NCBI GenBank assembly: GCA_029717555.1
Contig: JAMDHS010000037.1
Coordinates: forward strand, 1-64,000
Direction of reading: 5' to 3'
Source of the DNA: Peribolospora baueri
Taxonomy: Eukaryota
Length of the DNA: 64,000 bases
A model generated the notes under the pieces. That model was not told the origin of the DNA. It was given only the letters and a program-made list of their open reading frames with translations, and ran no database searches. Shown here piece after piece: positions 12,507-47,395 of the stretch. Within the stretch, counting starts at the first letter, position 1; every line of letters begins with the position of its first letter. Position numbers and translations under genes: made by a program.

Positions 12507-14659
12507 CTACGTGGACAATCCAGACGACATCTTCTCGGCCTGGCTGTCAGCCCCGGTTTCGCAGCTCTCTTCCAGGTGCTGTACCTCTGGCCTTTGCTTT
12601 GCTAGGCCGATGCGGGCCGCCACCTGGTCGATCCGGGAACGGTACTCGCGCTCCTCGTCCCACGTCCACCAGCTCTTGGTAGAGAAGAGGGCATCAATGC
12701 TGGGATGAGAGGAAAGGAGAAAAGGATGAGCGTTTCGCTCCTGCATCAAGAAGGGCGGTAGGTGACTCACCTCTCTAAGGTCCTTCGAGAAGTCTCTGGG
12801 TAAATGCAGTAGATGATCGGTACCCACGCAAAATTGAGCGCACCGAAGAGGTAGAAAGTCTTCTCGCTGATGGAAGACAACTGCAGTTCCAACGCGAGAG
12901 GACAGTACGGGCCGTCAGTACTCTCCACCACTTTCTGAACAGGTTGGCGGTGCGAGAGGCCTACCATGACTGGGTTCAAAAGGGTGGCCATGCCGCATCC
13001 AACCGCCCAGCCGCTGACGCCGAACGCGTTGCCTTTGGCTCGCAGTGACGCTGGCCAGAGCTCAGTAGGATACTAAAAAGCGGGTGCGAAGCTTTATAGT
13101 CAGAGTTGATCAGCAAGGTTGCTAAATCGCCTTAATAAACTCACGATAAATGGCACCATCAACCAGGAGCAAGAGAATACGAAAGTGTAGATAAAGAGCA
13201 TGCTAGCGCTGGCAGCACCAAGCTGGGATGCCTTGGCAGGGTTAGATACAAGCGCCTGGTCGAGGCCACCTTGGATGAACATCATGAAGCCCTGGATGAC
13301 CGCGCCGCCCATGAGAAGCTTCCGTCGGCCGACGCGATCCACAAGCTGCGCGGCAACGAATGTGCCGACGATGCCAATCGTGTTGCCGAGTGCGGACAGC
13401 CAGGCGGACTTGGTGGAGCCGTAGCCTGCCTTGGAGTACAGGGTTGGAGAATAGACGGTCACGGCCCCGATACCGTCCCACTGACACATAATCTGCAGGA
13501 AGAATGCCAGGAAGGCTCGGCGTCCGAGGTGCGCTCCGGAAGTCGCCTCGCTATTTCGACCCGACACGATCTGAAGGAAGCTCGGCTGAGTCTCCTTCTC
13601 GTCCTTGACGGCGCTCTTGACCTCATCAAGCTCAGCCTGAACCTCATCTCCGGTGCCTCGGAGAGCGAAGAAGACCTCCTGCGCCTCGTCATCTCGCCCA
13701 GCTTCAACGAGGTATCTCGGGCTCTCCGGCAGGAGATTGATGAACGCCGCGAGCATAAGCGCCGGGATGATCTGGAAAGCGAGTGGGAACCGCCATCGTA
13801 CCTGCGATGTACCCGCTTCCGTATCGGTGTAGCTGAGCCCAAAAGAGAGCCAGTAGGCCGTAGCGATACCGATATAGTTGGCCAGGAAGACGAGAGAGAT
13901 AAGGCTACCGCGGTCGTGGGCAGTAGCTACCTCTGCAGACCAAACTGGGACAATAGCGGTGAGGTGACCGCAACCGATGCCGCTGATGACGCGCGCACAG
14001 ATCATCATATTGCTATTCTGCGCACCCGCCTGGAGCGCTCCGCCAAGAATGCTCCAGAGCGAGCCGACAAAGACACCCCTGATACGGCCGAGCTTATCGG
14101 CAATGTAGCCGCCGATAAAGCAGCCAAAGATGACACCAAGCTATGGCAGAATCGGGTTTGTCGAGTGAACGCATGTGCCATTGATGTGTACGCGGACGTG
14201 CCACACTCACGTAATAGACCGATACGATCCCACCTTGCTTGGTGGTGTTCGTCACTTCGCCGTTCGAGCCGATACCGACCGTCGTCTGGTAATGGGGTGA
14301 CCCGTTGACGCCACCTTCACGCACAAGTTTTAAGCAAAACCACTGAGAGAATATTCTGAGAGAAATGAGGCAGCCACCTTGCAAACTCACCCATTACTCC
14401 TTGATCATAGCCTGCATGAGAAGAGCACGTTAGCACCGACCCAGCAAGGCGAAGCGAGCAAAAAAAACACCAGTGGGATATACCTTCGAAGAAAATGGCC
14501 ATGACTGAGAAGACATTCATGAGGACCATCAACTGGCTGCATAACAAAGCAAGCAAGAAGGGTAAGCATCACAACACCTAGGGAAGTCATCTACCTCAGG
14601 GTCCGCGAGGCTCACGTAGGCGAAAGCCTCTGCCAGAACTTCTTTGTTGCAGCTGTCAT
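12507..14659 (-). CDS. MFS sugar porter family transporter, multi-exon
   Basis: FFEG-YDQGVMG, ARVISGIG, VPVWSAE, WRFPLAFQ, LPESPRYL, VDRVGRRKLL, YPTELWP, YPETSRRTLE. Confidence 0.93.
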
Positions 14660-15551: not shown

Positions 15552-17621
15552 ATGTCCGTCCAGACCAAGCCTCTCGACATCAAGGTCATTGGCATGAACA
15601 GCGGTGAGCTCGTGGCTGATGTGGTCATCATTACGCTCTAGCCGGCCTGTTCTCACTCGTCTTCGTCTCAAATATTCCCATTCCCTCGCAGGCACCTCCA
15701 TGGTGAGTTGTGGCTGGCGGACCTCCGTTCCGGCATGGATAACTGCTGAAGAGCAATGGAGTCATCAGGAACTGTTGAGCTCACATGAAGCCCGCCGCTT
15801 TTCAGGATGGTGTCGATTGTGCTCATCTCCACTTTAGGCAAGAATCACCCGACAGCCCGTTGCACATGAAGTTGCTCAACTATGCTGAAATCCCTCTTCC
15901 GGCATGGATCAAGAAGGTGAGTGCGGTGACATGACGCCTGTTCGCAAAAGAGTACCAGTTCGTGATGGCTGCATCCAGTCGACCGAGTGATGACATTCAG
16001 TCACCAATCTGTATGAGCAGCCGCTTCTCAAGATGATCAAGTACAACACGACCACGCCAGAAGAACTTTGTCAGGTCAACTTTCAGCTTGGGGAGGTGTT
16101 CGCCGACGCGGTTCTCCAATTTTGCAAAGATAAGAATATTGATTTGAAGAAGGAGGTGGACCTGATCGGTAATCATGGGCAGACGATTTGGCTTTTAAGG
16201 TGAGCAGGCCGCGGCGCCTACTTGCTGAGATAGAAAGAGATGGTGCTCGCGTGAATTGGCTTTTTAACTGAGTGAGCTCATCTACCTTCCCGTTCGGACC
16301 CATCCAACAGCATGCCTGAAAAGGGCCAGACCAAAAGCGCACTCACCATGGCAGAGCCAGCTGTCATGGCTGCAAAGCTTGGAAAGACGATTACCAACGA
16401 TTTCCGACAGGCGGAACAGGCTGTGGGCAGACAGGGCGCGCCTCTGGCCGCATTCATCGATGCTTTGGCTCTCGAGCATGACCACTTGAATCGGGCGAGT
16501 CAGAACATTGGCGGCATCGGAAACGTCGCGTTCGTACCCAAGAAGACCGAAGGTGGAATCGACCAGGTCTTTGATTTCGATAGTGAGCGGCTTGTGGACG
16601 ATGATTCTGTTGCCTTGACTGAAGAGCAGACTAGCTGACTGGCGAGCACATCGTTCAGCTGGCCCGGGCAACGTTTTCATTGATGCGGCAGTCAGGCACT
16701 TTACAGACGGGGCCAAGGAGTACGACAAGGACGGAGAGATTGGTGCAAAAGGCAAGGTCAACCAGGCCATGGTCGATGAATTTCTAAAGCACCCATATTT
16801 TTCCGTGAGTGTACGCAGGCCGTAAACAGAGGATTGACGCCCTGGCTGATTTTACAACCACGTCAACGTCCATTGGCATGCGATGGTCGACCAATCGTGC
16901 GGACAGACGCCTCCACCGAAGACCACCGGACGGGAGCTGTTCGGAGACGACGTGGCACTCCAGCTCATCGAAAAGGGCCTTGCACAAGGCATGTCTCCGG
17001 AAGACTGCGTAGCCACCATCACCCGAATCACGGCCCAGTCCATTGTAGACCATTACAAGCGATATAGTCCCGGTGAAGGCAAAGACCTGGACGAGATCTA
17101 CATGTGCGGAGGCGGCGCAAAAAATAAGAACATGTGAGATCAATCATATGCCCACGTCGCAACCCATGAGGTTAGCATAGGACGACCACTAATCCTTGTC
17201 ATCCAATCCCGACTGACAGTACAAAGTACATTCAAGAGTCTTTTCCTCAGGCTAGGCTCACCAATCTTGACGAGTGCGGCATTCCTGCGGACGCCAAAGA
17301 GGTGCGCGGACAACTCGATAGAGAAACACAAATGACAGCAGGAGCGCGGGAACCTTTTCGAAGACTGATTTGTCGCAATCTCCTACTCTCTCCCATCAGG
17401 CTATCTCGTTTGGCTGGATGGGTTTGGACACCCTCCTCGGACGCTCCTTGCTCATCCCTCAAAGGGTCGAGACGCAAACTCCATGCGTGCCGGGCAAAAT
17501 CACCCCGGGCAGCAATTACCACGAGCTCATGCAGCAAGTCGTTGACTTTTCACGGGATACTAAGGGATGGCGCGGAACGAATATCCTGCCCCCCGTACGA
17601 AAGCTCGTTATAGATCCATGA
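15552..17621 (+). CDS. LGK: Levoglucosan kinase / anhydro-N-acetylmuramic acid kinase (AnmK) family, multi-exon
   Basis: [94 protein letters not shown]. These motifs closely follow fungal levoglucosan kinase as I recall it. Confidence 0.9.
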
Positions 17622-19321: not shown

Positions 19322-22300
19322 TCAGTGGGCTGCACCCAGGGAATCCAAGTCAAGCTGAAAGAGCTCGGCCCAGTAGGCTAGTGCGTGCTCTGGTGTTTGG
19401 GAGAGTGGTGGTGCGTCTTGTCCAGAAGGGAAAAGCATGGGCCAAGAAGAATCCAGCATGATGCTGGTGCGGGTCGGGTCACCTACCGGTTGAGCAGCGA
19501 TGCGAGGGCCGCTCCCTGCGCTCCCCCCGTCACCGACACCCGCCCTAACGCTACAATCCATAGAGAAGGGAGGATCGGCGTGCCCTTGAGAATAAGGACC
19601 AACGTCGAAAGCCGGGAGGCCCGACGAGATGCCAGGGCCGCATTGCCATGCTGCAGGGCTCGAGAGGTCTACGCCAGCCGAGAAGGGTTGAGGCAAAGGG
19701 CGGATCGATGCCAGGCCCGCGGAGGTGCTGGGTGGGCTGTTACATTGCTCTGCCGAGCTATAAGGCGGAGGTTGAGTCGCAGCTTGCGGATGGGAGCGAG
19801 CAGCCCTAGCACCCAAATGTTCAGCAAAGCGTGAAAATATGAATGGGAGATCTCAGGCATGTTTTTTGAGTAAGAGAACGCGTGGCTGAACTCAGGGCGG
19901 CTGGTCGTTCACTTACCTAGCAAGCTTTTCGAGAACATGAAGTCCCCCTTTGGCCGCCTTAAGTCCTGTCCATCTCTCCGGGATCCGCTCAAATAGGTGG
20001 GCAATAGTGGAGAGATCTTCAAGAGCACTTTCAGCGAGCCGGCTAGACGGCTGAAGGAAGATGATATAAGCCCCCATGACCTGCGAATGAATGGCACGGA
20101 AAAGAAATACAAGGTCGATATCCATCCAGTTCGAGACCCTTCGTTTGATGAGACTTGCAAGGCAGCCGACGAAGTGACTCCGTAGCCACTCACAGCTACG
20201 TGGAAAGTGAAGAAGCATATCTGCCAAAACATGCCGGCACGGACAGAACCTAGCAGATTATGCATAGTTTGCTGTGCTACGGCCACAACCCGCAGTGCCT
20301 CTGCGCAGATCCTCACGCTGGTCTCATTGAGCTGATGGGTACCGGATGAACCTGGAGCAGACGTAAGGTGGGAGCGGTGGAGCAATAGAAGGGTATGATG
20401 CACTTCAATGGCAAGGTTGCATGACTGATGAAAGAGGCGCAGGCTCTTGCTCGTCCCGCTTGCCCCGCTCGTCCGGGTAGCGCCATTAGTCCGTCCTGAT
20501 CGTTCTTTGTCTGGGCCCAAAGGCTCGACATCGACCCGGAACTGAGCTGGCAAGCCGGCGTACCAAGACTGCAGCCTCTCGGTGAAGACATTGACCCGCT
20601 CCTCGCTCCACCCTCGGCCTTGAGTCTCGTCCAGCAGTTGCCGGGCGAACTCGGAGTACTGGCATTGGAGCTCTCGATAGGTCGTCGATGAGGGACAAGT
20701 AAAGCTTGAGATGCGGCAGCTGAAGCTGGTGACAGCAAGGGGTCGACCGAAGATGCCTGAAAGCAGGACGTCCAGGTGAACGATTGCCCACCTGTCCACG
20801 GATACCAGAGAGGTTAAGGTGTGTGCGACCGCGTGAACCAGAATGATGGCGAGCTTGAGAACAGCAGGCTTATGCCATCCTGCTTACCAAAGTCGACGAC
20901 GTATGTCGGCCTCAACGGGGGGGCAGTCAGTGCGAAGATTGTCCGGCTCCACGTGCAGACCGATGGATTGCGCCTGACGCGCGATACTTCCAAGCAAAGG
21001 CCTAATGGAAGAGAGAGATAAAGTCAGCAACGTACAGAAGGCCTGGTGGTAGACCAAATCCGTCCAAGAGCAACTGGGTTGAGCCCTTGCCGCGCCGGCC
21101 TCACCAGAAGCTACTTGCGCGCTCAGTGTTCATCAAGTAGCATCCTACCATTGGGAACGGGGCCAAAGCGAGTAATGTAAAAACTGGATATGCCGTGGAA
21201 TGATGCTTCGCGCTCTTCCCTGTCACTCACCAATGAGCAGCTGAGCATGAATTGTTTGCAGCGTAGGGGAACTGAGAAAGGAGCAGAGACGGAGCGATTG
21301 GTACGTGGCGGACACTGAAGGAGAAAACAAGAAGATGGTGAGGGCGTGCACAGACGACCGCAGCCGGCGTCCACGTCCCGCAAAGTTCGGTAGAGCAGAA
21401 GCGAGCGAACCTGCCTGGCCAGAGGTCAACTCACGGTACAGGTCGGCCTCGAAGTTCACGGGGTCTTCGGCTAGGACCTTGCTGCTGGAGGGAGCGGGAG
21501 CGTCTCGGGCGTTGGCATCATTTGCAGTACGAAAATTCAACAGATCGTTGGCCACCAAACCTTCGTCTCCCGCAACCCTCAAGCCTATGGCAGTATTGTC
21601 GAGGTCGCAGTTGTTTCCCAAGGCACAAATCATGAGGAAGAGAGCAAGCCACGGAAGAGAAACGCGAGACCTTTCCTCGTCGGATCGCCTAAAAAATTCG
21701 CGCGCATTTTGAATGACGCTAGGGATACCGAGTGCGGGGCAGAGAGTTGCAAAATGTTGGGTGAAAGCGTGAACAAGGCTGGAAGCAGGTGGCAGGCGGG
21801 AAATTAGGTTAGAGTCAGGCATTGAAAAGAACTTTGGATTTTCTCGGCTCTTTTTGGCTGACTCACCTTGCCGCTTCGTCGGGCTTAGGGAGTTTCGGCA
21901 GAATCTCATCGATGAAGGCTGGACCGGACGACCAAATCGTGACGAACGGAAAAGTCTCGGCTTCTGAATACAGAAGCCCAGTGACTGCAGTCTGGACGTC
22001 ACGAGTAAGAGCATTGACATCGTCCGCCGTGTTTTTGCTCGCGTTGTCGGGACTATTCTCAGCGCTTCCATGTTCAGGACTGACACTATTAGGGGCGACC
22101 TTTTGAGAAACAGACATCATTGGAAGAGGAATGGACAGGAGCAAAATCAGTGAGACGGAAAGTCGACACACAGACTCGCAATTTCGAAGGTAGCATCCTA
22201 ACAGCTCTTTCTGCACGACCGCCCAATGACTAACCTCTCGGAGGACTGCGCTGGCTGAGACCCCCTCGCCGTAATAGATATGCTGACCGTTGAGATTGCA

Positions 22301-23364
22301 AGGCGCATCAGCGCTGGGCCCGTTGGGCTGAGATGCGTCCGCTTGGGAGGAGGATTGGCAGGACCAGCCGGCTTGCAGGTCAGATGAGATGTTCGACAGT
22401 GGGCGGACATCAGGGTGCAAAGGCGGGCTTGCGGCGCAGCACATGCTCAGCCGCCGGTGATCTGAGCGGTTCAACGTATCGCCCGTCCACTCTGGCTGAA
22501 CGCCGGCTGGTTCGTTGCCAGCAGCGCGGGGAGAACGGCGTGGACTAGACTTATCGCCTTCACGAGTAGTAACAGCTGCCACTGTAGTAGAGTTGCAAGG
22601 GCTCTGCATCATAGCCTCGTCCTCAGGTCCTCTCCATTCCGCCAGCATCCTTAGAGCGGACGCTGCATCTATATCTTCGCCGCGCCCTTCCGCCCGTCCT
22701 AGAGAACTCCTACACCTCCCTGTAGCCATGCCAATAACGGTGCTCGAGGCGGCCCGAAGACTTTCATCTTGCACTTGTTGGGTCTCTCTGCCAGATCCCT
22801 TATCTGTACCAGTGATCGGAACGTTCGGGCTTGACAGGGGCGGACTCGACGGGCTCGCTGCTTGGTGGTACTTCCGCAGTTCGCGGGCAAGCTCTTCGAC
22901 TCTGCGGCGTGAGACGGCCAGTTCTGACTGCAGCCTGCGAACGTCGTAATGCCGTAGGAGCGGCGCGCATGAAGTGGTCAGTGAAACTGGCGCATCACGG
23001 GCAACATGTTACCTCCCTCCTGTACGTTGCCACCCCAGGCCCCTGCCCAGGCTTCCCTCTCTCACCTTCCTAGTTCTGAAGGTTCGCACTCGCTCCATTC
23101 ATCTTCCTCATCCGATTGCTGCTCCCTCTGCTGGTTCTGCTCCTGCTGTTGCTGCTGGCTGTTCTGGCGGACTGACTTGTCTTGCAGCTTGGCATCGTAG
23201 TGACACTCACTCTCCGCACCTGCCTTACTGCAACGTCCGCAACTCGGCCGTGCGCGATCGCAGGCTCGTTTGCCTCGATGGCAAGGTATGCAGGACTTTG
23301 GTATGCGCACCCTCTTCCTCTTCTCTGGGATTCTGGTGGGAGGAGGTTCGGCGTTGCTGGCCAT
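19322..23364 (-). CDS. Zn(II)2Cys6 fungal-specific transcription factor, multi-exon
   Basis: RVRIPKSCIPCHRGKRACDRARPSCGRCSKAGAESECHY; middle homology region (WAIVHLDVLLSGIFGRP, LLLLHRSHL); C-terminus YWAELFQLDLDSLGAAH*. Confidence 0.9.
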
Positions 23365-24246
23365 ATTTGAGCGATGTGATCGATAGATGTGGAGAAGACG
23401 GGGTTGGTGATGGCAGCAGCCAGAATGCGGAGATGTGCGTGGAGCTAAGCTCGCGTGCGGGGGCCTCTCTTCGGCTATAGCGGGGCTTGGCGGAAATTCC
23501 CGTCCCCAGAATTGTCCTCTCCCGCGCCCTGCACGTTATCCGAAATTAATTGTCCTTTCGGATAACTACAGGGGTCACACTAGGAAGGGTTCATAGCACA
23601 AGACTGCCTAGGGAAGAGAGGAGGGCACGAAAAGGAGCCTGATAGAAAGCAGGGCATGGAATGGAGTCCGGCAGGACTCGCAAGAACTTCGCAACACGGA
23701 CAGGATTCTACAATATTCCTTTGCCAACAAGGTCAGCGTGCGGTGTCACGTCACTTTTGCTCAGGGAACGCGCGGCCCGCGCTTAACACCGCAAACGCCA
23801 CGCACCCATGGCGCAAGTACAGTACGGAGCTGACCTCCATGTCGCTAACTCCGCATTGCCCATGAGCTCGGCTTTGCCTGATCTGCTCGGCACCCAAGTA
23901 AGGTAGAGTCAGAGTCAGAGTGTTGTGAAGTCATATATCTCAACACTAAGCCTCGGTCCCCTCGCTCTGGGACGTTACACCTAAATCCGTGAGTTGGAGG
24001 CTAGAACCAAACCAGCAAACGGTGACTTCTCACGATGCGCGCTCTAACCTTCTGACGTGAAGATATACCACAAAGGTTGGCCTGACTGCAATTTTAGATT
24101 CCGCAGGTCAAATGCAATGGACCAGCATGGACCTGCCCTTCTACTTTCGCTCCTAATCGTAGCCTTTCTTACAGCTTACTAGAGAGAATGCTCGATTGAA
24201 AAAGTCATGCGCGCATGTGGCGTGCAGGGACGACCTCAGTGCGCGT

Positions 24247-25920
24247 TTACAACCTGCCGGTCTGCGCTGCTTGAACGGCATGAGCTGCTGCCTCCTTGAA
24301 ATCGTCGTAAGTCGCAATGGGCAGCTTGGAATCTTGCAACTGTCACATCAAGTCCAGAACACGCCCAGTCAGCGGATATGCGTACCGTTCTCATGTTTTC
24401 GGGAGGCGACCGGCGCGTACCAATTTCTTGGCCTCCTCTGCTCCCGTTCCCTTCATCCGCGCCACGATGGGCTGCTTCATGTTGTTCTCGCGCACAGCCT
24501 CAATGATGCCCTGGGCCACAACACTGGCGAGGCATTACGAGGAGTGGTGATAAGCTAATGCTTCCATGCGATATCAGCGCTGCATTGTTGCGACTCACTT
24601 CGTGCGAGTGATTCCGCCGAAAGCTGCGCAGAGATTCGATCAGATAGTTAGACAATTGAGCAACGGCGCAGCGCCGACGCAGCAGGGGCAACGCACTGTT
24701 GATGAAAATCGCCTTCACATCAGGGTCTCGATTGAGCGTTTCCACCGCCAGCCTGGCGTTTGCCTTCGTTGCTCCTCCTCCGCCATCTAAGAAATTGGCG
24801 GACTGGAGTAAAGATACAGGTACCGGAGAATCAGCCCGAAAGAAGAGGGTGAGGAAGAGATGTTAGGGAGCTCACCTTGCCGCCTACTAGGCCTAGGCCG
24901 TCCATTGTTGCCATTGCATTGCCTGCACCATAACCGAAGCAGCCCACATTTCCGCCTGTTTAGACCAATAATTGGTCGAAGATGAGGAAAGCGGGATCAG
25001 AGTCTAGAAGGAAAAGTTCATGGTGCCACTATTGTGCGGGACTGCATAATAGTACTGCGCAACACGCACGAGACGCTTACCGTTGTTCAGCTTGATGTAA
25101 AAAAGGCCACCATCTTCGGCCAGGGCAGCGTTTGCGTTGCGGTTTCGCTTGTCGTAAATCTCCTTCAAGTTGGGCTGGCGATGCAGGGCAAAAGTGTCGA
25201 ACTCAAGGTGTGGGTCCAGCCTATGCGGATAGAAAGTGACATCGGCATCGGCATTGCATGCAGGGCAGACGTGGATAAAATCAAAGACAGCACTCACACC
25301 CTCACTTTTCCATCGTCAATGGAAAGCTTAAAGGTAAACCAAAGTCCCTCTCGCTCGTCAAAAATACGCCAAATGCTCTGAAGCACCTGTGCCGCCTTCC
25401 ACGTGAGGGGCTCAGGAAACGAGAGTCCGGCGAGCTGGGCCGTACGGATGAGGAGATCGAACGCCTGGTCGACGCTGAGCCCATTTCTGAGGTTGATCGG
25501 CAGTTGAATCACCGCCTTTGGCTCCTCCTCTTGGAGACGCATGATCCCCACAGAGCCCGGTCCCAGCTCATCATCCATCAATGAGGGCAATTTGGATGTC
25601 ACGGTACCGAGAAGCGAAGGACCGAAGTGACGGCGGACGCTGTCGTTGGCATCGGTGGGCAGAGCTTGAGGGCGGCGATCGGCATGCAAAAGAATGGAAA
25701 GAGACTTGGCTGTATTATGTGTTGTGCCGCCCTGGTCTGTGTGGTGAGCTGGTACGGGGGCCCCTGTCGATCTCAGAAATTCAATTGCAGAGCCTGCTCG
25801 TAGGTGTACTTGCCTCTTGGACGGCTGCCCTTGTCGCGTCAACGAAACAGCAGAAACTGCTGGTCGGGCGCCTGAGCAGTGCGTTGGCGAGCGAACAAAA
25901 TTAGCGAAGGTGGCGAGCAT
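24247..25920 (-). CDS. Succinyl-CoA ligase beta-subunit-like protein with truncated ATP-grasp domain; putative mitochondrial presequence
   Basis: C-terminal ligase domain GNVGCFGYGAGNAMATMD, ANFLDGGGGAT, DPDVKAIFINTFGGITRTN, PIVARMKGTGAEEAKKL. The N-terminal exon lacks KxQ..GGRGK. Confidence 0.85.
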
Positions 25921-26096
25921 CGGTGTGGATGTATGAAGTCAGACAAGCTATCATGTAGGCTCATGATTGCTTTTGTAAACACTCGCTCCGCAACACCCCG
26001 CTGCCGGTGGCGGTGGAGTTAAGCAACGCGAGCATGGTCACTGATTTGGACGGGGTCTGCGGTCGGCGATAAGTGACGCGCCCCTCGACGCCGGGA

Positions 26097-26105
26097 CGGC
26101 GTTAA
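26097..26105 (+). promoter_or_regulatory. CGGYKTTWA cluster motif in the divergent beta/alpha promoter
   Basis: CGGCGTTAA, with variants CGGCGATAA (26064) and TTAAGCCG (26274). Confidence 0.6.
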
Positions 26106-26313
26106 TAGTAGAGCCGGGCAACTCACCGCATGGCCCTAATCGACTGTTGAGACTCGAGGCTAGCTCCATCAATCTCTTTGCCGATGCCTCGGACACTTGA
26201 TTCAACTTAGAATGCCGAAGTCGCTCACTCATCAAATAGCAGGCGGCCTTTTCGCGGAGTGACAACCAGCAACTTAAGCCGTTCTTTCGACATCATCCTT
26301 CTCACAAGCCAGC

Positions 26314-27876
26314 ATGGTCTTGGGGATCTCAAGCTACGTCCGTGCTGCGACCCACAGTGCCAGACCGCTGGTACGAGATAATTGCCACCAGCAGCTCTTC
26401 CGCGCTTTCAGCACATCGCAACCGGCGCATTCGTATGCAGACACCATCAAGAACGTCGCAGTGGGCCCAGAGTCCAGGGTCATTGTCCAAGGATTCACTG
26501 GTAAAGCGGTGAGCACATCTTCGAGCAGCAGTGCGCGGCATACCCGCCTCCACTATACTGACATTGACTGACACCTTGCTCGGCTCCACTAGAGCACCTT
26601 CCATTCCAAAATCTCGATGGAGATCGGCACCAATATTGTTGGCGGTGTAAGCCCTGCCAAGGGCGGGGCGACCCACCTTGACAGACCGGTCTTCGGGACC
26701 GTTCGCGAGGTCCGTAATCCCCGTGTGCACTTTCGTTCCCCTGACTACGTGCGCGCGGCATCGAATCTCTGAACTATCCTCGCGCACTGTTCACAGGCCG
26801 CCAAGCAGCTGCAGCCGCATGCAACCACTGTCTTTGTACCTCCTCAACTGGCTGCGGATGCCATCATCGAGGCAATCGAAGCCGAGATTCCTCTAATTGT
26901 CAGCGTAGCAGAGGGCATACCTGTCAAAGACCAGATGAGGGCAAGTGTCCGGGCCTCCGCCCCCAGCAGCACGGAGCTCTCAACTTCACTTTTGGCCTTG
27001 TTTTCTTTTGCAGGTCATGTCCGCCCTCCACTCGCAATCAAAGTCTCGCCTGCTGGGCGCCAACTCGCCCGGACTGATGAACCCGTGAGTCCACTCTGGC
27101 TGTGTGATACATAGTGTCACACCTAGCAGAAAAGCTCAACGCGACCTCGTTTTCGTTGACTCAAAAGTGCTGGATGCCGAATGGGCATCTCTCCTCTCAT
27201 TATAGCAAAGCCAGGATGCGTTGGTTCGTGTTGACTCACTGCTACCCGACAAGCACGAGCTTCTTTGCGTGTGCCTCAAACTGTTCACTAACCGTATCAC
27301 ACGTTCGCGTGGATGCTCGTATTTCTCTGAGCGCAGGCATCGCCGCTCGCTCTGGCACCCTTTCTTACGAAGCGGCGTGGGCAACGCGGGGTCTGGGACA
27401 AACCTACATCCTCGGTCTCGGCGGAGACTTTTATCCCGGCACGCGCACGGCCGAAGCGCTGGACTTTTTCATGCAAGATTCGCGGACTGAAGGTGAGCGT
27501 AAAAGACACACGTATCAGATGCAACTAGCCTTCCCCGGTGGCGTCTGGCCATAGTTGACGTGACCCTTCCTCGTGCCCACCAGTCATTGTTCTCGTCGGC
27601 GAGGTAGGCGGCACAATGGAGGAAGAGTGCACCGAGCTACTCCAGAGCAAGTATTGGCAAGATGGTCGGCCCGCTAAGCCCGTGGTTGGCTTCCTCTCGG
27701 GCATGAGCGTCCCGCCCGGCCAAATTTTTGGGCACAGCGGAGCGATCTGGCGCGATGGCATTGCGTCGTCCCACCAGAAAAAGGCGGTGTGGGAGCAGGC
27801 CGGTATTAGAGTCGTTGACACTATTGCGGAGGTAGGGCGCGCAGCGGAGGAAGAACTAGCGAAGCTGAAGGAGTAA
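26314..27876 (+). CDS. Succinyl-CoA ligase alpha-subunit-like protein (divergent paralog), multi-exon
   Basis: [52 protein letters not shown], phospho-His loop [10 protein letters not shown]. One GC-AG intron starts at 26941. Confidence 0.92.
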
Positions 27877-28242: not shown

Positions 28243-29933
28243 ATGCTTCTTCGCACCTCTCGTATAACATGCGGCGCTTTTCCGGCGACTGTGACACCAG
28301 CTGCACGGCCCTGGCGCAGTGTCCAACACCGCCCGCTAGGCTCACTTGCGAAGCTGAATGAAATAATGGGTACCAGGCAGCCGCCGTTACCACGCCGCTC
28401 GCTTCTTTACGGTGAGTCCGACTGAGCGCGTTTCTAAGTCGTGCTTGCCTAATGCATGTGAATATGACCATCAGTGCCGTCATCATCGGCGAAGCGAATG
28501 GCCTCCGCTGTTAAGCTCGGTACACCCGATACCATTATCTTCGATTTGGAGGACAGCGTCGCGCCGGCCGTGAAGGCTAGCGCGCGACACCAGCTTCAAG
28601 AGGTACTCACTGGTATCGGTCGTTCCCATTCCGACAAGGAGCCGGGAACTAACCAGGCGGCTTACGCCGTCAGGATCAATTCAATGGGCAGCGGACAAGA
28701 GCAAGAAGATCTCCGACTTGTTGTGAGCTGTACAGCAGTCCTCTCAGTCGCAACTTTTCGGTACAAGAACATCATTTTGACCGAGTGTCTTTCATCTCTT
28801 GCCAGCTGGCAAACCCGCTGGTGCGTACTATCATGGTGCCAAAGGTCGATCATCCCGAGCGTCTTGAACACCTTTCCGGCCTACTTCAAGGTATGAAATC
28901 TTCGCCAGCCTCAAGCGGGTGAGTGCTGGTATTCTTCGCAAGATTTTTCCGTGCAAGTCTGACAAAATCTTTGCCTCGTACACGAGACAGCCCCTTGCGC
29001 GTCATCGCTCTCATCGAATCGCCGTTAGGTCTCCTGAACTTGTCCCAGATTGCCTTTTCACCAACACTGCGCACTGCGCAGGCGCAGTTAGACGGTCTGG
29101 CGTATGCGGCCGAAGATCATTGTGCCTCCGCTAGTATCATCCGTGGGCCGGGCGCACTCGAAGTGCTCTTTGCGCGCAGCGCCGTCGTGAACGCCGCTAA
29201 AGCAGCGCGCCTGTCCGCTTTTGATATGGTGTGTTTCCAGTGACTTGATTTTTGCAGTGAGAGCCTTGCTCTTTCTGAACGGTATGTTGTTCTGTGACCT
29301 TGGCGGATCATCGTCGTACCGCCGTAGGTCTGCATTCAGCTTCAGGACCAAGCAGCGCTCGAGTTGGAGGCGAGCCAGGCCAGAAGGCTAGGCTTCGACG
29401 GCAAGGTTTGTAGTTCGCTCGCACGTTGCCGACGCCCACAGTTCAGTTGGTTGCTCACGTTTGCCCCTCGTCGGCCTCGATCGGGCTGCATCTTACTTTC
29501 CGGAGTGCAGCAAGCGGTTCATCCCTCGCAAGTCGACTGCATCAACAGCGCTTTCGTGCCAGGAGCGAACGGTGAGCAACCTTGCATGGGAGTCATATTT
29601 CCGTCAAAACGCGCCATGCTGACTCTGCAATGTGCTCTCCCGAAGAAATCCGTCGCGCAAAATTCATCGTTGAAAGTCTTAAGGGGAAACAAGGTTGTTC
29701 TTCCGGCATTGCCCAGGGCGTCACAGCTCTGACGTACGAACATGCGGATCGAACGGAAACGATCATGGTCGACAAGCCGGTAGTGGAGTGAGTAGTCCCA
29801 ACTTCACGAGGAACTGGGATACAATAGCGTTTTCTGAAGCCCATATGACTTTGCACGTCGCGTGTAAATTCCGTTTCTCGATGGCAGACAGGCGCAGAAG
29901 CTTATCGCAAACGCTGAAACATTCGGACTTTGA
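28243..29933 (+). CDS. CitE/HpcH-HpaI family acyl-CoA lyase (citramalyl-CoA lyase / citrate lyase beta-like)
   Basis: RRSLLY-VP, IIFDLEDSVAP, AVRINS, MVPKV, IALIESPLG, YAAED, AFDMVC, GFDGK-QAVHPSQV, MVDKPV. Confidence 0.9.
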
Positions 29934-30401: not shown

Positions 30402-32196
30402 ATGATCGTCCCGTCACGATTTCCACTCTCCGCCTTGAAGCCCTGCTGCACGACACGAGCAATGCTCTGCCGAGCCTATCGGTGCTGGCAGACGGACGTC
30501 AGGCTCATTTCGTCCAGATCGCCTGGCAGAGCAGCATCGCCAGCAGCAACCTCGACATCACAGGTCGGTCTGTCGTCGCCTGTGACCGTTTGGGCGCAAG
30601 AGGCCGCATCACGCGTTCGCAAACAGGACGACGTTGCCGATCTCAACAGAGCTCGGCAGCTCGCCCTTTGTCTACCGCACAGGGCGGCTGTCCCCACTCG
30701 TCCAGGCAAGCAACCTCAGCTGGTAGCCAAAGGTGGAGAGGAAGTCATCGAGATAACAAAAGGGTGTCGGATGCCCAGCGGCGCCTCGTGTGAGCTTTTT
30801 TTTTTTTTTGTTTTGTTTTGGATTATTTTGTTCTTCTCTCTGTTACTATTACTCTATTGTTCTTCATTTTTGTCATTGTTATTCTGGCAAGTTTCAAGTT
30901 GGCGACGGGTTTCCCCCGCTGTCTGAAACTGACGAAGTTTCACAATACTCCACCGCTCTCTGTGTGACATTATAAAGTCACACTTTTCAACCCTCTGCTA
31001 CCAGAGCCTGTGCTAGCGAGCGATGGGACCGAACGTATGTTTGGCCCTCCGGGTGGATACGACCAACGCATGTGGGCTGGCGGGTCCGTGGAGTTCAATT
31101 CCGACAACGTGCTTCGCGTGGGAGACGAAGTGCAATGCGAAGAGAGCGTCGAGAAGGTGACTCGCTCTTGCCTGCTTGGCGGCTCGATAGCACGATTTCG
31201 CCCGTGGGCTTTGGCATTCAGCCTTTTCTTGCAAATCTAACCCCTTTTGCTTCTTCCTTTTGCCCAGGTAGAGCACAAGTCGAGCACAAGCAATGGGAGC
31301 ATGTTGCTAGTCTGGCGCAAGCTCGTGACGAGCAATTCGAATGGTGTCGTATGCACCGAGCGCCGCTGTCACGTTTACCGCAAGCCTCGCCCGCATGCCG
31401 AGATTGACCAGAGTATCAGCCCACGCAAAAAATCTCCTCGTAAGCCCAGACGCTCCCACCCGTACTCTTATCACGAGCGCCATAAATCAGCTTGAAGTTG
31501 CTCATCGCCCTCGCGGCGCTCGTTGACTCCTTCAGCTCAAGAGAGGTCCGCCGACTTCTGCATGCTCTTTCACCCTACACCGGCAACACTTTTCCGCTAC
31601 AGTGCAATTACTTTCAACGCGCACAAAATTCACTTGGACCCCCAATGTGAGAGAAAACGGGCGTCATGTGAATGTTGGCCTTGGGAAAATATACATTTCT
31701 GCACGTATTTGTGACGAAACAAGCGTCGCTGAAACCTTCTCTGCTCTTTTCATCCGAACCCAACACATATGTTGCTCGCAGACTGCCGCGCAGAAGAGGG
31801 CCACCCTGGTGAGTACATGCAACTTGCTCTAACCGCGTGCAGAGCATGACTCGAGATACTCACGGAACAATTTTCCTTCTCTGGCTCTCGCTGCTCCGTT
31901 GGCGCTTCGTAGACTGCCTCGTTCACGGACCACTAACCGCCACCTTGCTCATGTGCCTCATCGACCGTGTGGCCGGCGCTGGGTATCTTCGAAGCTTTAA
32001 GTACCGCGCAAGTTCGCCGCTCGTGGTGGGCCAAAAGGTTACGCTGAACGGGCGCTGGGTGGGAAAAGAGCCGAAAGAAGGCAATCTTCGCCAGGCAGAA
32101 CTGTGGGCTGTTGACGAGCAAGGCCTAACTTGCATGTCTGCAGAAGCGATGATTGAAGACCCTGACAGGCAAATACCTGCGACGTCGTCCGCCTAG
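30402..32196 (+). CDS. Hot-dog fold hydratase, HTD2 / itaconyl-CoA (mesaconyl-C4-CoA) hydratase-like
   Basis: LASDGTE, QRMWAGGSVEF, LFRYSAITFNAHKIHLD, EGHP-DCLVHGPLTATLL, FKYRASSPL; Arg/Ser-rich N-terminus. Confidence 0.88.
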
Positions 32197-32934: not shown

Positions 32935-34937
32935 TTAGCTCACATCGAAGTTAACTGCCTTGATCGTCAGATACTCTTCGATCCCGTATGCACTCCCCTC
33001 TCTTCCGTATCCGCTCTCCTTTACGCCGCCAAATGGAGATTCGCATGCTGAAAGCATGCCCGTGTTCACTCCAACCTGCTCCGCGGCCGGCCGAAGAAAG
33101 AGGGGGGAGGATGGAGGGCAGCGGTTAGTACCACGTGAGAGAAAAACGATTTCAAGACGTAGCGGTAAGGCAGCAGCAAGGCTGTATCGACCTTAGATCT
33201 TAGTTGGCTCACCATCCCAGTCTCGATCCCTTCCGCCATGCGTAACGCGCGGCCAAGGTTAGTTGTGTACACATATCCACCCAAGCCCACGCTTGCGTCG
33301 TTGGCAAGCGCCAGCGCCTCCTCATCGGTGTCAAATGTACGCACTGCAGCGACGGGTCCGAACGTCTCCTCGCGCCAGATCAACATTTGGTCGGTAAGTC
33401 CCGTAACGATCGTGGGGGGAAAAAAGTAGCCACCCTCGAACGGTGTCGTCACGAAAGGTGAGGGGGCCGACCACGCCACCTTCCCGCCCACCTGGAGAGC
33501 CTGCTCAACGTGCGCGCGCGCTTTGTCCACTGCGCGTGCTGAGATGAGTGGGCCGATCACCGAGGTATGGTCGGCGCCGCCGCCAACCTTCATGTTGGCA
33601 AATGCGGCAGCAAGGCGCTGGACGAAAGCGTCATGAATATTGCGCTGCACAAAGATGCGGTTGGCGGCCACACACGTTTGGCCCGCGTTGCGCATTTTGC
33701 TCAAAACGACAGCCGCCACCGCCTTGTCGAGGTCGGCGTCCTCAAAAACAAGCGCGGGTGCGTTTCCACCAAGCTCGAGAGAGAGTTTCTTGAGGGTTTC
33801 TGCGCTCTGCTTGACTAAAAGCTTACCCACACGCGTCGAGCCCGTGAGCGAAATTTTGCGGACGCGAGGGTCGACGCACAGCGCCTCGCCTACTTCGGCA
33901 GTGTTATCCAGAGCAAGGACCACGTTGAGCACGCCTGGCGGGATCCCGCAGCGGAGCGCCAGCTCGCCCAGGGCCAAGGTTGACAGCGGGGTCTCGCCGG
34001 CCGGCTTGAGCACGGTGGTGCAGCCAGCTGCAATTGCAGCGGCCAGTTTACGAGTTGCCATTGCAAGAGGTAGCTGAATTCACGTTTCAAAAGAGGTAAG
34101 AACACGCGGGCTTTTTCTGCCAACTGTGAGCCCTTGCTACGCACGTTCCATGGGCAGAACGCTGCCACTACGCCAATGGGCTGCTTGATCGTCATGATCC
34201 TGCTCGTTGGATTGGCTGCCGGGATGGTGAGACCATACGTGCGCTCTGCCTCGCCGCTGAACCACTCGAGGAACGAGGCAGAATACACAACCTCAGCTTC
34301 CGCTTCCGCACCTGATGCGCTCGTAGGAGACATGCGAGGACAGTAAGTTGAGGCTGTGTGTGAGTAAGGACAAGAGGTTTGGTGTCGAGGAGGAAAAGAG
34401 AAGTCAAATGGGTTGCTCACGAGGCTTTCCATTTTCGGCTACGATTAGCGTCGCAATGTCGGACTTGTGAGCGAGAAGAGCATCGTTGAGGGTGCGGAGC
34501 ATCCGCGCGCGCGATCTGGCAGGAGTCCGTTTGAAGGAGACGAACGCATTGCTTGCCGCATCAATGGCCTTCCGGACATCGGCGGTGTCCATCTCAGGAA
34601 CATCTACCAAGTGCTTGCCGGTGCTGGGGTCTACAATAGAGAGTGGAAAATATGCCAGGCCGGAAACATAATGGGTTATCATCGCGTCTCGGTTTCTGAT
34701 CCCATCGTAGCATCGGTGCAGCTCAGCAAAATCTCGCTTACCCAGTACGGGGAAACGCTTGCGTCCAGTGGCCTCGACCCACTGTCCATTGATAAGTGCC
34801 TTGTCGCGGAAGAGCCCGCCATCCGTGAGCGTAGCGCCAAGCTACAACAAGGGTTAGGGTGAGAGGTGCAGAACCGGCGTCAGAAGCGCAATGCCATTAT
34901 GGTAGATTGGCGAGCCTACTGAACTTACGGTTTCCAT
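32935..34937 (-). CDS. Succinate-semialdehyde dehydrogenase-like aldehyde dehydrogenase (GabD/Uga2 type), multi-exon
   Basis: [74 protein letters not shown]. Confidence 0.93.
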
Positions 34938-35546: not shown

Positions 35547-38500
35547 ATGGCAGGTGAGCCATTCACCGTATTCTGTCCCCATGAAGTGCGAGGTAGACAT
35601 ACTTACCACCACCCCTCGCCCCTTTCATTGCAGCTGTCGATTACGATCTTGTGGTTATCGGCTCAGGATTCGCGGGCGTACGTTGGAGTGCTTTTTTTGC
35701 TGTTTTCCCTTGCACGAACAGGATCGCTGATCTATCCCCCGCTTGCTCACCCACATTTGCAGTGTATGACCACACTCAAATTCCTGGAGACGGTACAGGA
35801 GCTGGGGAAGAAGGCCAAGGTTCTGCTTGTCGAAGCAGGAAAGGATGGCGAGCGTTGTGGAGCCTCGTGAGTCAAAAAATAGAGTGCGTAGCACGTTTTG
35901 CCAGTTTCTCACTCGCTTTCTCTATTTGTTCCTCGTACGCCCTATTTATAGGCGTTGGACGGGAGCCTTCGTGAGTCAGGAGACGCTCTAGTGGAGTGCA
36001 GCGACAAGCGTCTGTCTTTGAGCCATGCACCCAGATGATCACACAGCCTAACTGAACGACTTTCTTCCGGCCTCGAATATGCAGCTCCGCCTTGACAACG
36101 ACCTCAACTTTGACAAGGATTGGGTTAAGTACATGCACAAGACGAGCAAAGGCCTTGCAGATCAAGAGTACTGTAAAAAGCTCACTGAAGTTCGTATTCA
36201 ACCTTAAAGCCTACACGCTTGTCACGAATCGTGCTCACATGCTTCACTTTGCTGCGTTCCTAACTTTATTTTGCAGCTCGCCGGCGACACCGCCAGGTAC
36301 ATTGAGGCCAAGGGCGTGAATCTTGTTCGCCATGAGGAAAAGGTCAGCTAGCATCGACCGACTTTTTTTGGGCTGATCCGCTTCTAATCATGCGCTGGCC
36401 TTCTAAACGTACACCCAACGACTTCAAAAAACCACAGCAAGTTGCTCTTGAGTTCGACACGAATGGAGTAGGTCACGACTCGGATGAGGGATTACGTCGA
36501 ACGCGTTCTGATGCTCGTTTCCTTCACTGCCTGTTTTCACTCTGGTTTTAGCATTGTGAGCTTATCGTTCCTATATGGTACATGCGTTGAGACAGGGTGA
36601 AGCCCTTCCATTCACCGTGCTATGCCCTTCTTTTTTCTCGAAACAGTCGTCTTCCCGAAGGGTGGAGGACTTGAGATTGTGACCAAGCTCATGGGTCACA
36701 TTCAGAAATATCCCAACTGTGATGTGTGGTGGGAGACCGCTGCGGAGAAGCTCGTGACGAATGATGAGGGAGCAATCACTGGAGTGGTAGTTCGTGGCAA
36801 GGATGGGAAGCTCAAGAGGGTTACAAGCCACCACGTGATGCTGGCCTGTGGCGGTTTCGAAGGCAACCCCGAAATGCTCACCCAGTACGTCGGGCCAAAC
36901 TCAGGTGAGGAATTTCAAGCAAGCTACGGCGCAGATGACTCTTAAAGCTGCTTCTTTCCACCTTTCCACGCCTAAGTACGCGCTGTTGACTAATACCCGC
37001 CAAATTTTCGCCGATACTTGCAGTGGACCTGCCGCTCATTGCCCCGGGCCTTAAATACGTGAGTTTTGAGCTTGTGCACCCAACCATTGTCCTGGCTCGC
37101 ACAACCATATTTACTAAACAAACAATTTTGTACGCCTGTCGCCTACAGAACCGTGAGTCCTCCTTTGCTGTCTCCCTCTCTCTCCTCTTCTCCACGCTCT
37201 AAAAAAATCCCCGGCGGCTTCATTGTGGCGTAAAAAGCTGACGTACGTTTCCTGCTCAAATCACCCTTTTCCAGAAGGCGCTGGTATTCGAATGGCCAAG
37301 GAGGTCGGCGCTGGGACCTCCGGTTCATACGACGGCATTCACGCCGAACTTGTCGACACTCGATCAAAGAAACCAGATGCAGTCGTATGGGGAAATGGGT
37401 GGGTTATATCTAGTTCACCCTTGCAAGACCCTAGGGTGCGTGTTCACGTCCAGCTCAATTTGGCATTCCTGATCGGGTCGAAACCCCACACCAACCCCGA
37501 TCTTCTAGCTATGGCATATTGGTCGACAAGAACTGCAAGCGCTTCTTTGATGAAGCGCATGCAGAATTGTTTGGATCATTTGAGCTTGCCGCGTACTATA
37601 CTTGGCGCGACGCGCAACAGCAGAGCTGGCTCATATTCGACAAGACCACCTTTGATCACTTCAAGCCTGGTTGGGTAAGTGTGCTCGTGGGCCTACGATC
37701 ATTTCCAGGAACTTTGGTCTACTTAGGAGCGCTCTCGCGTGACAGCTTGCATTCAGCGCATGCACCTTTGTTCTGCAACAGCCGTGACTGCTACGTTTCT
37801 GCATGAAGGGTTAATGCCGATCTAACTGACCACTTCCCTCACTCAGGTCTACGATACGACAGAGGTTCCTCCTGAGGAGGGCAAGACAATCGGCGAACTG
37901 GCTACTAAACTCGGACTTGACCCTCAAAAGCTGGAAGCTACAGTAGCTGAGTTCAACAATGCCTGTGACTCGACGAAACAGCTGAACTTCATGAAGCTCG
38001 ACGGGAAGGGTGAGTAATGGGCGCATAAATCGTGTCCACGTTTCACCACTTCTGACCTCTGCCCTTGTGCCATTTGATGAAGGGACGGAGGGCATTCATC
38101 CGCCCAAGAGCAACTGGGCTGAGCCCCTTTGCAAAGGACCGTTTTATGGCTATCCCCTGACAGCAAACATAACCTTCACTTACGGTGGGCAGCTGCGCTG
38201 TTGGCTCATGCTCGTTGACCTTTATCTCTCACTGAGTCATGTACGACACTGCATACGATCTATTTGTGTGCTGTGCGCTCCCTTTCCTTATAGGCGGCTT
38301 GAAAGCCAACCTGGACACGCAAGTACTCGCCGAAAACGGCTCCGTTATTCAGGGTCTCTACGCAGCTGGCGAGATCCACGGCTTGTGTGAGTAGACGAGC
38401 TAGCAGCTGCCTTCTTTCCTCCGCATGTGGCTTTGATATACGCGCGCGGAACCTGACTTTCCGCCGAACTCTGTTGCAGTCTACCATGAGTACCCTCCCG

Positions 38501-38655
38501 CGACGAGTGGTGAGAACCCGACTCCTCGGATCGCTGTTAGCGACCCTGTACTCACATAGACACATGATTGATTGTTGCGCGTCTGTATCGCAGTCTTGCG
38601 GTCGCTGGCGTTTGGCGGCGTCGCAGGCACTTTCATCGCCAAACAGCTCAAGTGA
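35547..38655 (+). CDS. FAD-dependent oxidoreductase, TcuA/CobZ (tricarballylate dehydrogenase) / fumarate reductase flavoprotein family; very many small exons
   Basis: DLVVIGSGFAG, GASRWTGAFLR, VMLACGGFEGNPEML, NQGAGIRMA, GIHAELVD, YGILVDKNCKRFFDE, PKSNWA, ITFTYGGL, GLYAAGEIHGLFYHEYP. Confidence 0.82.
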
Positions 38656-39749
38656 ACGTACTGGGACCAGTTCTAATCAAACGCAAAGCTGCCGCCTTTT
38701 TTCCTATTCCTCTGTTTCATCGCTACCGACAAATGTTTCTACAAATTTGTTTTGCTCTTTTAAAGTGTTTAGCCTAAGTGAGATATGCTGAATTCTATTC
38801 CGGTCACCGTGTCACATTCTCGTTCGTGAGGCTTGTGGGTGAGAGTGTCTATGTCTGATTGCCCGTGTAGTCCGTTACTGACCTGCAAGAACAGCTCAAG
38901 CTTCGTCATCTTGTTAATGATGACGAGCACGCTGTTCCCGTGGCTATCCCGATCGCCCCAACTCTATCGACATCCGTGACGGGGACTAGCGGGCGATGAA
39001 GTCGTCGGCCATCTGAGCCAGGTCAGCGCTTCTACTGGTTTTACCCGCCAGATCGCTGAGTGGAGAAGAGGACGAGGCTCAATGAGTAACTAGACAGGAT
39101 GCGTGTAGGCTGGTAGCGCGGACTTAGCACGATCCTTCGCATCCACTTCGTCAACGAGAGGGTAAATTGAGTAAGCCGACGTCGTGAGTCCTCGTGAGCT
39201 TGATGTTCTCATCGAACGCTCCGGACCGCACCTGCACTATCGCCTTTACGCCTTGTGGAAATCGGATTGCCGGGATTAGGGTCGTCTTCGCTGACTCGCC
39301 TGTCCACAGTCCTCACTGAGCGTTTTCCTCTGCGGATCTGTGGGAATTCGACCCCTTCGGTGGTATTAGGTGAACGGCCAGAGTAGGGAACATACGCATT
39401 GATAGTCCGAGTGACTGCAGTTGGAAAGGCTCGGTACCAGTCTCCTGATCCCCAGTCTAGTTCGTACTTGCGAGCAGAAGAGCTGCGACGCCCAACAGCG
39501 ATTGGGGGCCTCGAAGCAATGCCGGTAGTTACACCTGCCCCGTTGGGAGCTGCCTGCTTCGTCGGAACCGGCGCGTCAGCAATAGAATTTTTTTCGCCTC
39601 TCCGGGCCTCCCCAAAATCTGTACCCCATTCGACTGATACACGTGTACGCAGATTCCGAAAGTGGCCTCGATTTGCGCTCGCCCGGGCTCCCCGGCACAA
39701 ATAGACCGAATTCTCTAGGACCTCCACACTCCCAATCGACAGCGTAGAG

Positions 39750-47364: not shown

Positions 47365-47395
<31 letters not shown>

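Follow-up and report, generated by a model that had tools for sequence, protein, structure and literature searches.

Succinyl-CoA synthetase (SCS) is known from textbooks as an enzyme with two sites. Its phospho-histidine loop moves back and forth between a site for coenzyme A (CoA) and the acid, called site I here, and a nucleotide site, called site II. In the E. coli SCS structures, Lys46, the glycine loop Gly52 - Gly55, Asn199 and Asp213 of the β subunit bind ADP-Mg. Fraser et al. in 2002 reportedly found that mutants of Glu197 of the β subunit are phosphorylated by succinyl-CoA and inorganic phosphate (Pi), but not by ATP. Glu197β is described in PMC10342173 as stabilizing the phospho-histidine at the nucleotide site. 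PMC12290011 divides the itaconate pathway into activation, hydration to citramalyl-CoA and cleavage; according to that paper, SCS is able to activate itaconate, and some bacterial clusters have no transferase gene. A pair of SCS-like genes that departs from this scheme is present in a stretch of 64,000 nucleotides from Peribolospora baueri (GenBank assembly GCA_029717555.1, contig JAMDHS010000037.1, positions 1 to 64,000 of the forward strand), referred to here as the window. The products of the two genes are called β' and α'. Judged by its sequence, β' is an SCS β subunit in its fold, its C-terminal domain and its partner, but it is not the subunit of a nucleoside diphosphate (NDP)-forming ligase in its ATP-grasp domain and nucleotide residues. 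The interpretation favored below, with a probability of about 0.4, is that α'β' is a mitochondrial, SCS-derived heterodimer that carries out phosphate-dependent CoA transfer through the phospho-histidine, in a gene cluster of the itaconate type.

The β' gene has the following parts:

24247..25920, minus strand: β' gene, 7 exons with a coding sequence of 1170 nucleotides, encoding a SucC-like protein of 389 residues
25920-25298, 25220-25081, 24955-24876, 24802-24697, 24623-24599, 24523-24421 and 24339-24247, minus strand: the β' exons in order
25298..25920, minus strand: exon 1, encoding a putative presequence and, at residues 38-208, a vestigial ATP-grasp domain
24247..25220, minus strand: exons 2-7, encoding a linker and the CoA-ligase (PF00549) C-terminal domain

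The ATG of β' is at position 25920, and an in-frame stop lies just upstream (open reading frame (ORF) 25294..25938). Exon 1 is a single open frame from 25920 to 25298 that closes at a GTGAGT donor. The six further exons keep the frame, every intron has GT..AG boundaries, and the stop codon is the TAA at 24247-24249. A preliminary description of this stretch had reported an uninterrupted first exon and a gene free of stops and frameshifts, and the complete seven-exon model bears out both statements. The spliced protein aligns over its full length with 26 full-length orthologues, to which it is 52-68% identical in the C-terminal part (across 177-181 of 181 residues) and 24-38% identical in the N-terminal domain (N-domain). 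This agreement shows that the exons are joined correctly and that neither a frameshift nor a stop interrupts the gene. Residues 1 to ~37 are, from their composition, likely to be a mitochondrial presequence.

The N-domain is where β' departs most clearly from its relatives. The preliminary description had proposed scanning the protein with the Pfam ATP-grasp_2 profile (PF08442). With 12 bits (E of 0.16), exon 1 stays under the cut-off of 29.5, and of the 202 profile positions the match covers no more than 128-191. At E<=0.01 the profile is detected in one of 26 family members, with a best value of 0.0068, compared with 32 of 32 canonical SucC sequences. A profile of the β' family matches the β chains of solved SCS structures with E of 1e-44 to 1e-53, but this match begins only at SucC residue 128. 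The profile-profile comparison (hhalign) with the 32 canonical SucC sequences, with E. coli as the first of them, gave the same boundary (probability of 100, E of 1.3e-55, E. coli residues 128-388).

The fold of the ATP-grasp domain is nevertheless recognizable. The AlphaFold model of exon 1 has a pLDDT of 80.5, and its residues 38-208 superpose on E. coli SucC residues 1-211 (2scu_B: Z of 12.0, root-mean-square deviation (rmsd) of 2.4, 135 residues aligned). This places the beginning of the vestigial domain ('VHL...FLRS') at the SucC N terminus, as had been read by eye from the sequence motifs. The isolated ATP-grasp domain from Blastocystis (6no3_A) superposes with Z of 14.0 and rmsd of 2.1 over 129 residues of 235. 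Overall, the remnant is aligned to SucC residues 1-211/226 over 127-135 residues with Z of 12-14, and the grasp domains of ACLY, ACD and PatZ follow with Z of about 10. The model of an orthologue, when the whole chain is compared with SCS β, gives Z of 24-26, for example with 2fp4_B (Z of 25.8, 307 residues aligned). The E. coli Glu197β mutant entry, 1jll_E, is also among the structural matches.

The superposition shows what has been removed. Between the helix 42-51 and the strand 73-86 of β' there are ~21 poorly ordered residues, compared with ~88 in E. coli (16-103). The N-domain thus has ~67 residues fewer, close to the roughly 70 estimated in the preliminary description, and the counterpart stretch in E. 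coli holds Lys46 and Gly52 - Gly55. The residues that remain were compared in a table of 27 family and 32 canonical SucC sequences, with E. coli SucC numbering. When the first 127 residues of SucC were forced into a global profile alignment with the family, the resulting columns had zero confidence, and they were excluded from the residue mapping. For the same reason, no reliance can be placed on the columns of the table that precede E. coli residue 104. Asp81-Arg82 of β' correspond to E. coli Asp115/Arg116 and are kept in 27/27 family and 32/32 canonical sequences, so that the earlier assignment of LLHADRR to the SucC DR motif was correct. The E. coli I-E-I-N-P segment (196-200) becomes W-F-T-F-K in β', with a one-residue gap, and the loss of EINP claimed from the first reading is thereby confirmed. 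Glu197 is present in 32/32 canonical sequences and is replaced throughout the family by Thr (14 sequences) or Ser (13 sequences). Asn199, likewise present in 32/32 canonical sequences, is never Asn in the 27 family sequences, and Pro200 is a gap in all 27. Asp213, also found in 32/32 canonical sequences, is kept in only 4 of the 27, the window protein being one of the four. Lys46 and Gly52 - Gly55 are present in 32/32 canonical sequences, and the region is absent in the family, its columns being unreliable or gapped. The loss of the nucleotide/Mg site from β' is well supported.

What is left of the N-domain in the family has 3 invariant and 15 nearly invariant columns. When sequences of like divergence in the C-terminal domain are compared, N-domain identity is 30.9% in the family and 50.2% in canonical SucC. 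Constraint on this domain appears to be relaxed but not absent. Relaxed selection had been named in the preliminary description as a sign of pseudogenization. The faster evolution of the N-domain agrees with the first half of that thought, but the conservation of the family and the constraint that persists speak against the second.

The C-terminal domain, which contributes to site I, gives the opposite picture. PF00549 is detected in 26/26 family members, and the GAG power helix, the NFLDGGGG motif and the FGGI motif are intact in β', as had been claimed earlier. The underlying positions Gly265, Ala266, Gly267, Asn285 - Asp288, Gly290, Gly291 and Phe319 - Gly321 are invariant in 27/27 family sequences. 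Near the site there are also changes that are specific to the family and invariant within it: N264Y, L268N, V263G, V289G and I318T in E. coli numbering. Asn264 of E. coli is presumably the succinate-contacting Asn of pig SCS. Replacement of this residue, together with L268N and the companion changes, looks like a changed acid pocket. Since the remodelled pocket is invariant, it looks like new specificity and not like decay.

The same architecture occurs in independently annotated orthologues from more than 15 named species. When exon 1 was compared with longer proteins by a word-indexed search, 0 of 1820 candidates were scored, and an exhaustive phmmer search with exon 1 alone found 23 representatives. 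With one orthologue (P0006) as the query there were 370 matches at E<=1e-5. The best 40 of these 370 all contain PF00549 without PF08442, and most of those ranked below, among the 120 of 370 that were listed, carry PF08442. The named sources within Ustilaginomycotina are Exobasidium, Microstroma, Jaminaea, Violaceomyces, Pseudozyma, Sporisorium, Ustilago, Melanopsichium, Testicularia, Kalmanozyma and Thecaphora, and outliers of the family come from Phenoliferia, a cystobasidiomycete and Cutaneotrichosporon. A quick IQ-TREE phylogeny was calculated from 178 columns of the C-terminal part, with 27 core family sequences, 4 outliers and 32 canonical sequences, and without a canonical fungal LSC2. 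The 27 core sequences lie on one side of a branch with an SH-aLRT support of 99, and the core together with the 4 outliers is split from the 32 canonical sequences by a branch with a support of 100. This conservation indicates that β' is a member of a basidiomycete family under selection, and no pseudogene.

Two of the outliers, P0066 (Phenoliferia sp., 485 residues) and P0063 (358 residues), have a full-size N-domain and keep Glu197, but are without the Lys46 and Gly-loop motifs and without Asn199. This pattern suggests that erosion of the nucleotide site preceded the deletion, and the two proteins are possible intermediates.

The partner of β' is encoded immediately beside it, on the opposite strand:

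25921..26313: divergent intergenic region, 393 bp between the start codons of β' and α'
26314..27876, plus strand: α' gene, 7 exons, encoding a SucD-like protein of 345 residues
26314-26508, 26593-26709, 26797-26946, 27014-27084, 27168-27223, 27337-27492 and 27584-27876, plus strand: the α' exons in order

The 393-bp interval may contain a shared promoter. The α' protein has 124 of 287 residues identical to E. coli SucD and retains the catalytic His (GHSGAI), the equivalent of Glu208α (GEVGG) and the SRSGTLSYE motif. It was aligned with five further proteins, the fifth of which (P0148) is a canonical α subunit, and with a natural fusion of β' and α'. All of the α' sequences, namely the window protein, the four orthologues and the fusion, retain the catalytic His and Glu. 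Several of the surrounding motifs have changed. In place of the basic pair that precedes the His there is Q/K-I-F in the window protein and the four orthologues, and L-M-Y in the fusion. None of these proteins has the GGKG that normally follows the His. GHIH is altered (PLIIA in the window): every α' sequence lacks its first His, and the fusion alone still has the second. The Cys of NCPG is replaced by Ser in the window protein and the four orthologues, but not in the fusion. These changes fall in or near the loop that ordinarily moves across to the nucleotide site, and their meaning is inferred.

Pairing of the two genes is not confined to this window. The Exobasidium rhododendri orthologues have neighboring locus tags, CBS101457_000046 (β') and CBS101457_000047 (α'), and in Microstroma the longest contig given for the β' orthologue is as long as the one given for the α' orthologue, which is suggestive of a shared contig. 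Furthermore, the two chains are fused in P0117 (645 residues, Cutaneotrichosporon cavernicola) and in P0112 (615 residues). In both fusions the β'-like N-domain is smaller still, with ~150 residues, and the α'-like part keeps the catalytic His. The natural fusions provide a Rosetta-stone link and argue for pairing of β' with α'.

These properties can be assembled into a mechanism. Site I is kept, formed by the His and Glu of α', the two power helices and a CoA/acid pocket shared with the C-terminal domain of β', and site II has been destroyed by the ~67-residue deletion together with the replacement of Glu197, Asn199 and Pro200. An enzyme that has lost site II but kept site I could still run the half-reaction acyl-CoA + Pi + His <-> acid + CoA + His-P. 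Succinyl-CoA, or another acyl-CoA, and Pi would phosphorylate the His via an acyl phosphate, the freed acid would be swapped for itaconate or a related C4/C5 dicarboxylate, and the reverse half-reaction would give the new acyl-CoA and Pi. The net result would be nucleotide-independent transfer of CoA, with phosphate acting as the catalyst. Such nucleotide-independent, phosphate-dependent transfer through the phospho-histidine is plausible, if still tentative. We infer the mitochondrial location, the substrate, the CoA donor and the transferase chemistry, the substrate and the donor from context only.

Pfam scans of the β' and α' pieces, in which matches to CoA-transferase classes I-III were looked for, gave only Ligase_CoA, CoA_binding and chance-level matches. 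The term 'CoA transferase' is therefore a mechanistic proposal and not a family assignment. In the literature, most subscription journals being outside the search, no description was found of an SCS β subunit without an ATP-grasp domain, of a phosphate-dependent CoA transferase of the SCS type, or of a CoA-dependent itaconate degradation cluster in smut fungi.

The genes on either side of the pair provide the metabolic context:

21226..23535, minus strand: Zn(2)-Cys(6) transcription factor, adjoining β' (PF00172, E of 5.5e-7)
28468..29791, plus strand: HpcH/CitE-type acyl-CoA lyase with several exons, downstream of α'
30968..32196, plus strand: MaoC/hotdog hydratase with several exons, next after the lyase

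The Zn(2)-Cys(6) factor is a candidate regulator of the cluster. The lyase has two PF03328 matches above threshold (E of 8.7e-9 and 5.8e-14) and partial NCBIfam matches to RipC_Ccl (6.5e-7) and citE (5.6e-11). Its closest solved relative is human CLYBL (5vxc_A, E of 2.2e-6), found with one of three exon pieces, and the other two pieces, 28468-28893 and 29328-29729, had no match among the sequences of solved structures. Three exon pieces of the hydratase match itaconyl-CoA hydratase 8khg_A colinearly, at residues 71-109 (E of 0.032), 161-190 (4.3e-5) and 202-252 (0.006), and 8khg_A/8huc_A is the best or only solved match for each piece. PF13452 is below threshold in the hydratase (E of 7.9e-4), NCBIfam gave no match with its exon pieces, and the nearest Atlas clusters are those of MaoC, Htd2 and 3-methylfumaryl-CoA hydratase. 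The cluster thus appears to match an itaconate-type pathway in which β'/α' stand in place of a CoA transferase, and the presence of the lyase and the hydratase beside the pair, of which the preliminary description was unaware, fits the earlier guess of itaconate as the acceptor. The route encoded by the cluster would have three steps, from the acid to the acyl-CoA, then to citramalyl-CoA and finally to acetyl-CoA and pyruvate. No other ATP-grasp ORF was found in the window among 29 ORF pieces or among 85 of the 152 ORFs of at least 120 residues.

The preliminary description had proposed a CoA transferase built on a ligase scaffold. The scaffold has held up: site II is lost, site I is kept, α' bears the His, fusions of the two chains exist, and a lyase and a hydratase are neighbors. 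The transfer itself remains at the level of a proposal. The wider claim that α'β' is a fourth mechanistic class of CoA transferase, evolved in basidiomycete mitochondria to pass CoA from succinyl-CoA to itaconate or a related C5 dicarboxylate as the first reaction of an itaconate-type cluster for catabolism or detoxification, is more speculative and should be regarded as somewhat doubtful. If it were correct, P0066 and P0063, with their full-size but eroded grasp domains, and the fusion P0117 would record the stepwise loss of the domain.

Further genes lie beyond the hydratase. An aldehyde dehydrogenase at 33069-34841 on the minus strand, in at least 3 exon pieces, has succinate-semialdehyde dehydrogenase as its best NCBIfam match (E of 3.9e-106 for one piece). 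A FAD_binding_2 flavoprotein at ~35600-38800 on the plus strand has partial matches to flavocytochrome c / fumarate reductase and to TcuA (tricarballylate dehydrogenase); its substrate could be a dicarboxylate, for instance methylsuccinate or itaconate. A mitochondrial carrier repeat (PF00153, E of 1.6e-17) at 41708-42118 on the minus strand, 10 kb from the cluster, is possibly part of an organic-acid carrier.

At the left end of the window there are two GFO/IDH/MocA oxidoreductase genes and a histidine-phosphatase-superfamily gene (823-1582, 5441-5884 and 3492-4316, all on the plus strand). A sugar/MFS transporter (PF00083, E of 2.5e-69) is found at 13103-14140 on the minus strand, overlapped by an antisense ORF of 389 residues without a family match, and a fragment of the AnmK family (anhydro-sugar kinase-like, E of 3.1e-13) at 16276-16635 on the plus strand. 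The block 44000-60000 has a G+C content of 0.60-0.665, compared with about 0.55 elsewhere. It contains many long overlapping ORFs on both strands without a Pfam match, for example 57347-59749 (minus strand, 801 residues) and 46158-47576 (minus strand, 473 residues). A C2H2 zinc-finger (Zap1-like) gene is located at 53628-54926 on the minus strand.

Other explanations of the α'β' pair have to be weighed against phosphate-dependent CoA transfer. The pair could still be a ligase dependent on a nucleoside triphosphate, either through a remodelled pocket in the N-domain or through phosphoryl supply in trans, by an ATP-grasp subunit as in archaeal ACD or by nucleoside-diphosphate kinase, an enzyme that phosphorylates SCS and ACLY. 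The N-domain has after all been retained, it folds as an ATP-grasp remnant with conserved motifs of its own, and split five-subdomain arrangements exist, the ACD chains 4xyl_D and 4yak_D being among the structural matches. Such a ligase is unlikely, however, because the region of Lys46/Gly52 - Gly55 is absent and Glu197, Asn199 and Pro200 are replaced in 27/27 family sequences, and because the N-domain is even smaller in the fused Cutaneotrichosporon proteins. Furthermore, the window ORFs that were scanned contain no ATP-grasp family, and the α' loop is without its basic pair and GGKG in the window protein, in four of the five orthologues aligned (the canonical P0148 being the fifth) and in the fusion. 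Retention of site I and loss of site II would equally suit an enzyme that cleaves an acyl-CoA with phosphate and then has the phospho-histidine or the acyl phosphate hydrolysed, a thioesterase-like activity that would clear itaconyl-CoA, citramalyl-CoA or a similar compound. A gene of the histidine-phosphatase family is present at 3492-4316, at a distance of 20 kb. It would make little metabolic sense, however, for a cluster whose lyase and hydratase need an acyl-CoA to begin with an enzyme that hydrolyses it, and among the ORFs scanned the cluster has no other activating enzyme. This possibility is slightly less likely than the ligase. More doubtful again is a pseudoenzyme, non-catalytic or regulatory, for instance a sensor of CoA or acyl-CoA, or a protein on which the lyase and hydratase assemble. 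In its favor, half of the catalytic machinery has been lost, and identity in the faster-evolving N-domain is 30.9%, compared with 50.2% in canonical SucC at similar C-domain divergence. Against this, the site I motifs are invariant in 27/27 β' sequences, the window α', the four orthologues and the fusion all have the catalytic His and Glu, and the invariant family-specific change of the acid pocket (N264Y, L268N) resembles new specificity. A pseudogene, or an artefact of the gene model with the full ATP-grasp domain encoded elsewhere or spliced otherwise, is highly improbable. Exon 1 is one open frame, which leaves no room for a missing exon within it, the β' and α' starts are merely 393 bp apart, the frame is intact across 7 exons, and the independently annotated orthologues of more than 15 species share the architecture.

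Phosphate-dependent CoA transfer in an itaconate-type cluster has its own weak points. The family N-domain has new conserved motifs (ADR, FGPS, GxGxLG and EGxWF), the functions of which could include binding of another phosphoryl donor. Glu197 is still present in P0066 and P0063, which means that the loss was stepwise and may be incomplete in some lineages. The tree, lacking fungal LSC2, does not place the origin of the β' family, and a canonical SCS is assumed to coexist in the same organism. The lyase is not distinguishable from other CitE-like lyases, such as those for malyl-CoA and citryl-CoA, so that the acid substrate is uncertain, and the hydratase matches are individually weak (E of 0.03 to 4e-5).

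Should the α'β' pair nevertheless transfer CoA as proposed, one half-reaction of SCS alone can be a complete enzyme, and a new chemical solution stands beside the three known classes of CoA transferases. In addition, the pair would supply the activation step that is missing from a CoA-dependent route for itaconate and C5 dicarboxylates in smut-type fungi. These fungi include industrial itaconate producers, so that the cluster is a candidate explanation for lost product and could be targeted in strain engineering.

Among the known systems closest to the pair, ACD, ACLY and PatZ, of the NDP-forming acyl-CoA synthetase superfamily, use the same five-subdomain toolkit, but their grasp domain is complete, whereas here it is a stump in an otherwise standard SCS β subunit. 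Malate thiokinase (MtkAB) with malyl-CoA lyase likewise places an SCS-like α/β pair beside a lyase of the CitE type; that route, however, has no place for the neighboring hydratase. A malate thiokinase assignment for β' was considered and rejected: P0116, annotated as 'malate-CoA ligase subunit beta', contains PF08442 and groups with the canonical sequences, separated from the family by a branch with an SH-aLRT support of 100. The likeness to bacterial and mammalian itaconate degradation (Ict-Ich-Ccl, or SCS or SUGCT plus CLYBL) is that here a putative Ich-like hydratase and a CLYBL/Ccl-like lyase adjoin the activating enzyme. Unlike in those systems, the activator is neither a class I/III CoA transferase nor a nucleotide-using SCS, and the cluster is fungal and putatively mitochondrial. 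SCS β itself (SucC, LSC2, SUCLA2 and SUCLG2) resembles β' in the C-terminal domain (E of 1e-44 to 1e-53), in the whole chain (Z of 24-26) and in having a His-bearing α partner. It differs in that the ATP-grasp domain of β' is ~67 residues shorter, with Lys46 and GGRG gone, Glu197, Asn199 and Pro200 replaced, PF08442 undetected and the acid pocket altered by N264Y and L268N. The E. coli SCS Glu197β mutants (PDB 1jll) are altered at the very position that is Thr or Ser in 27/27 members of the family; in the family, however, the alteration is a natural and conserved state, and the rest of the site has been deleted as well.

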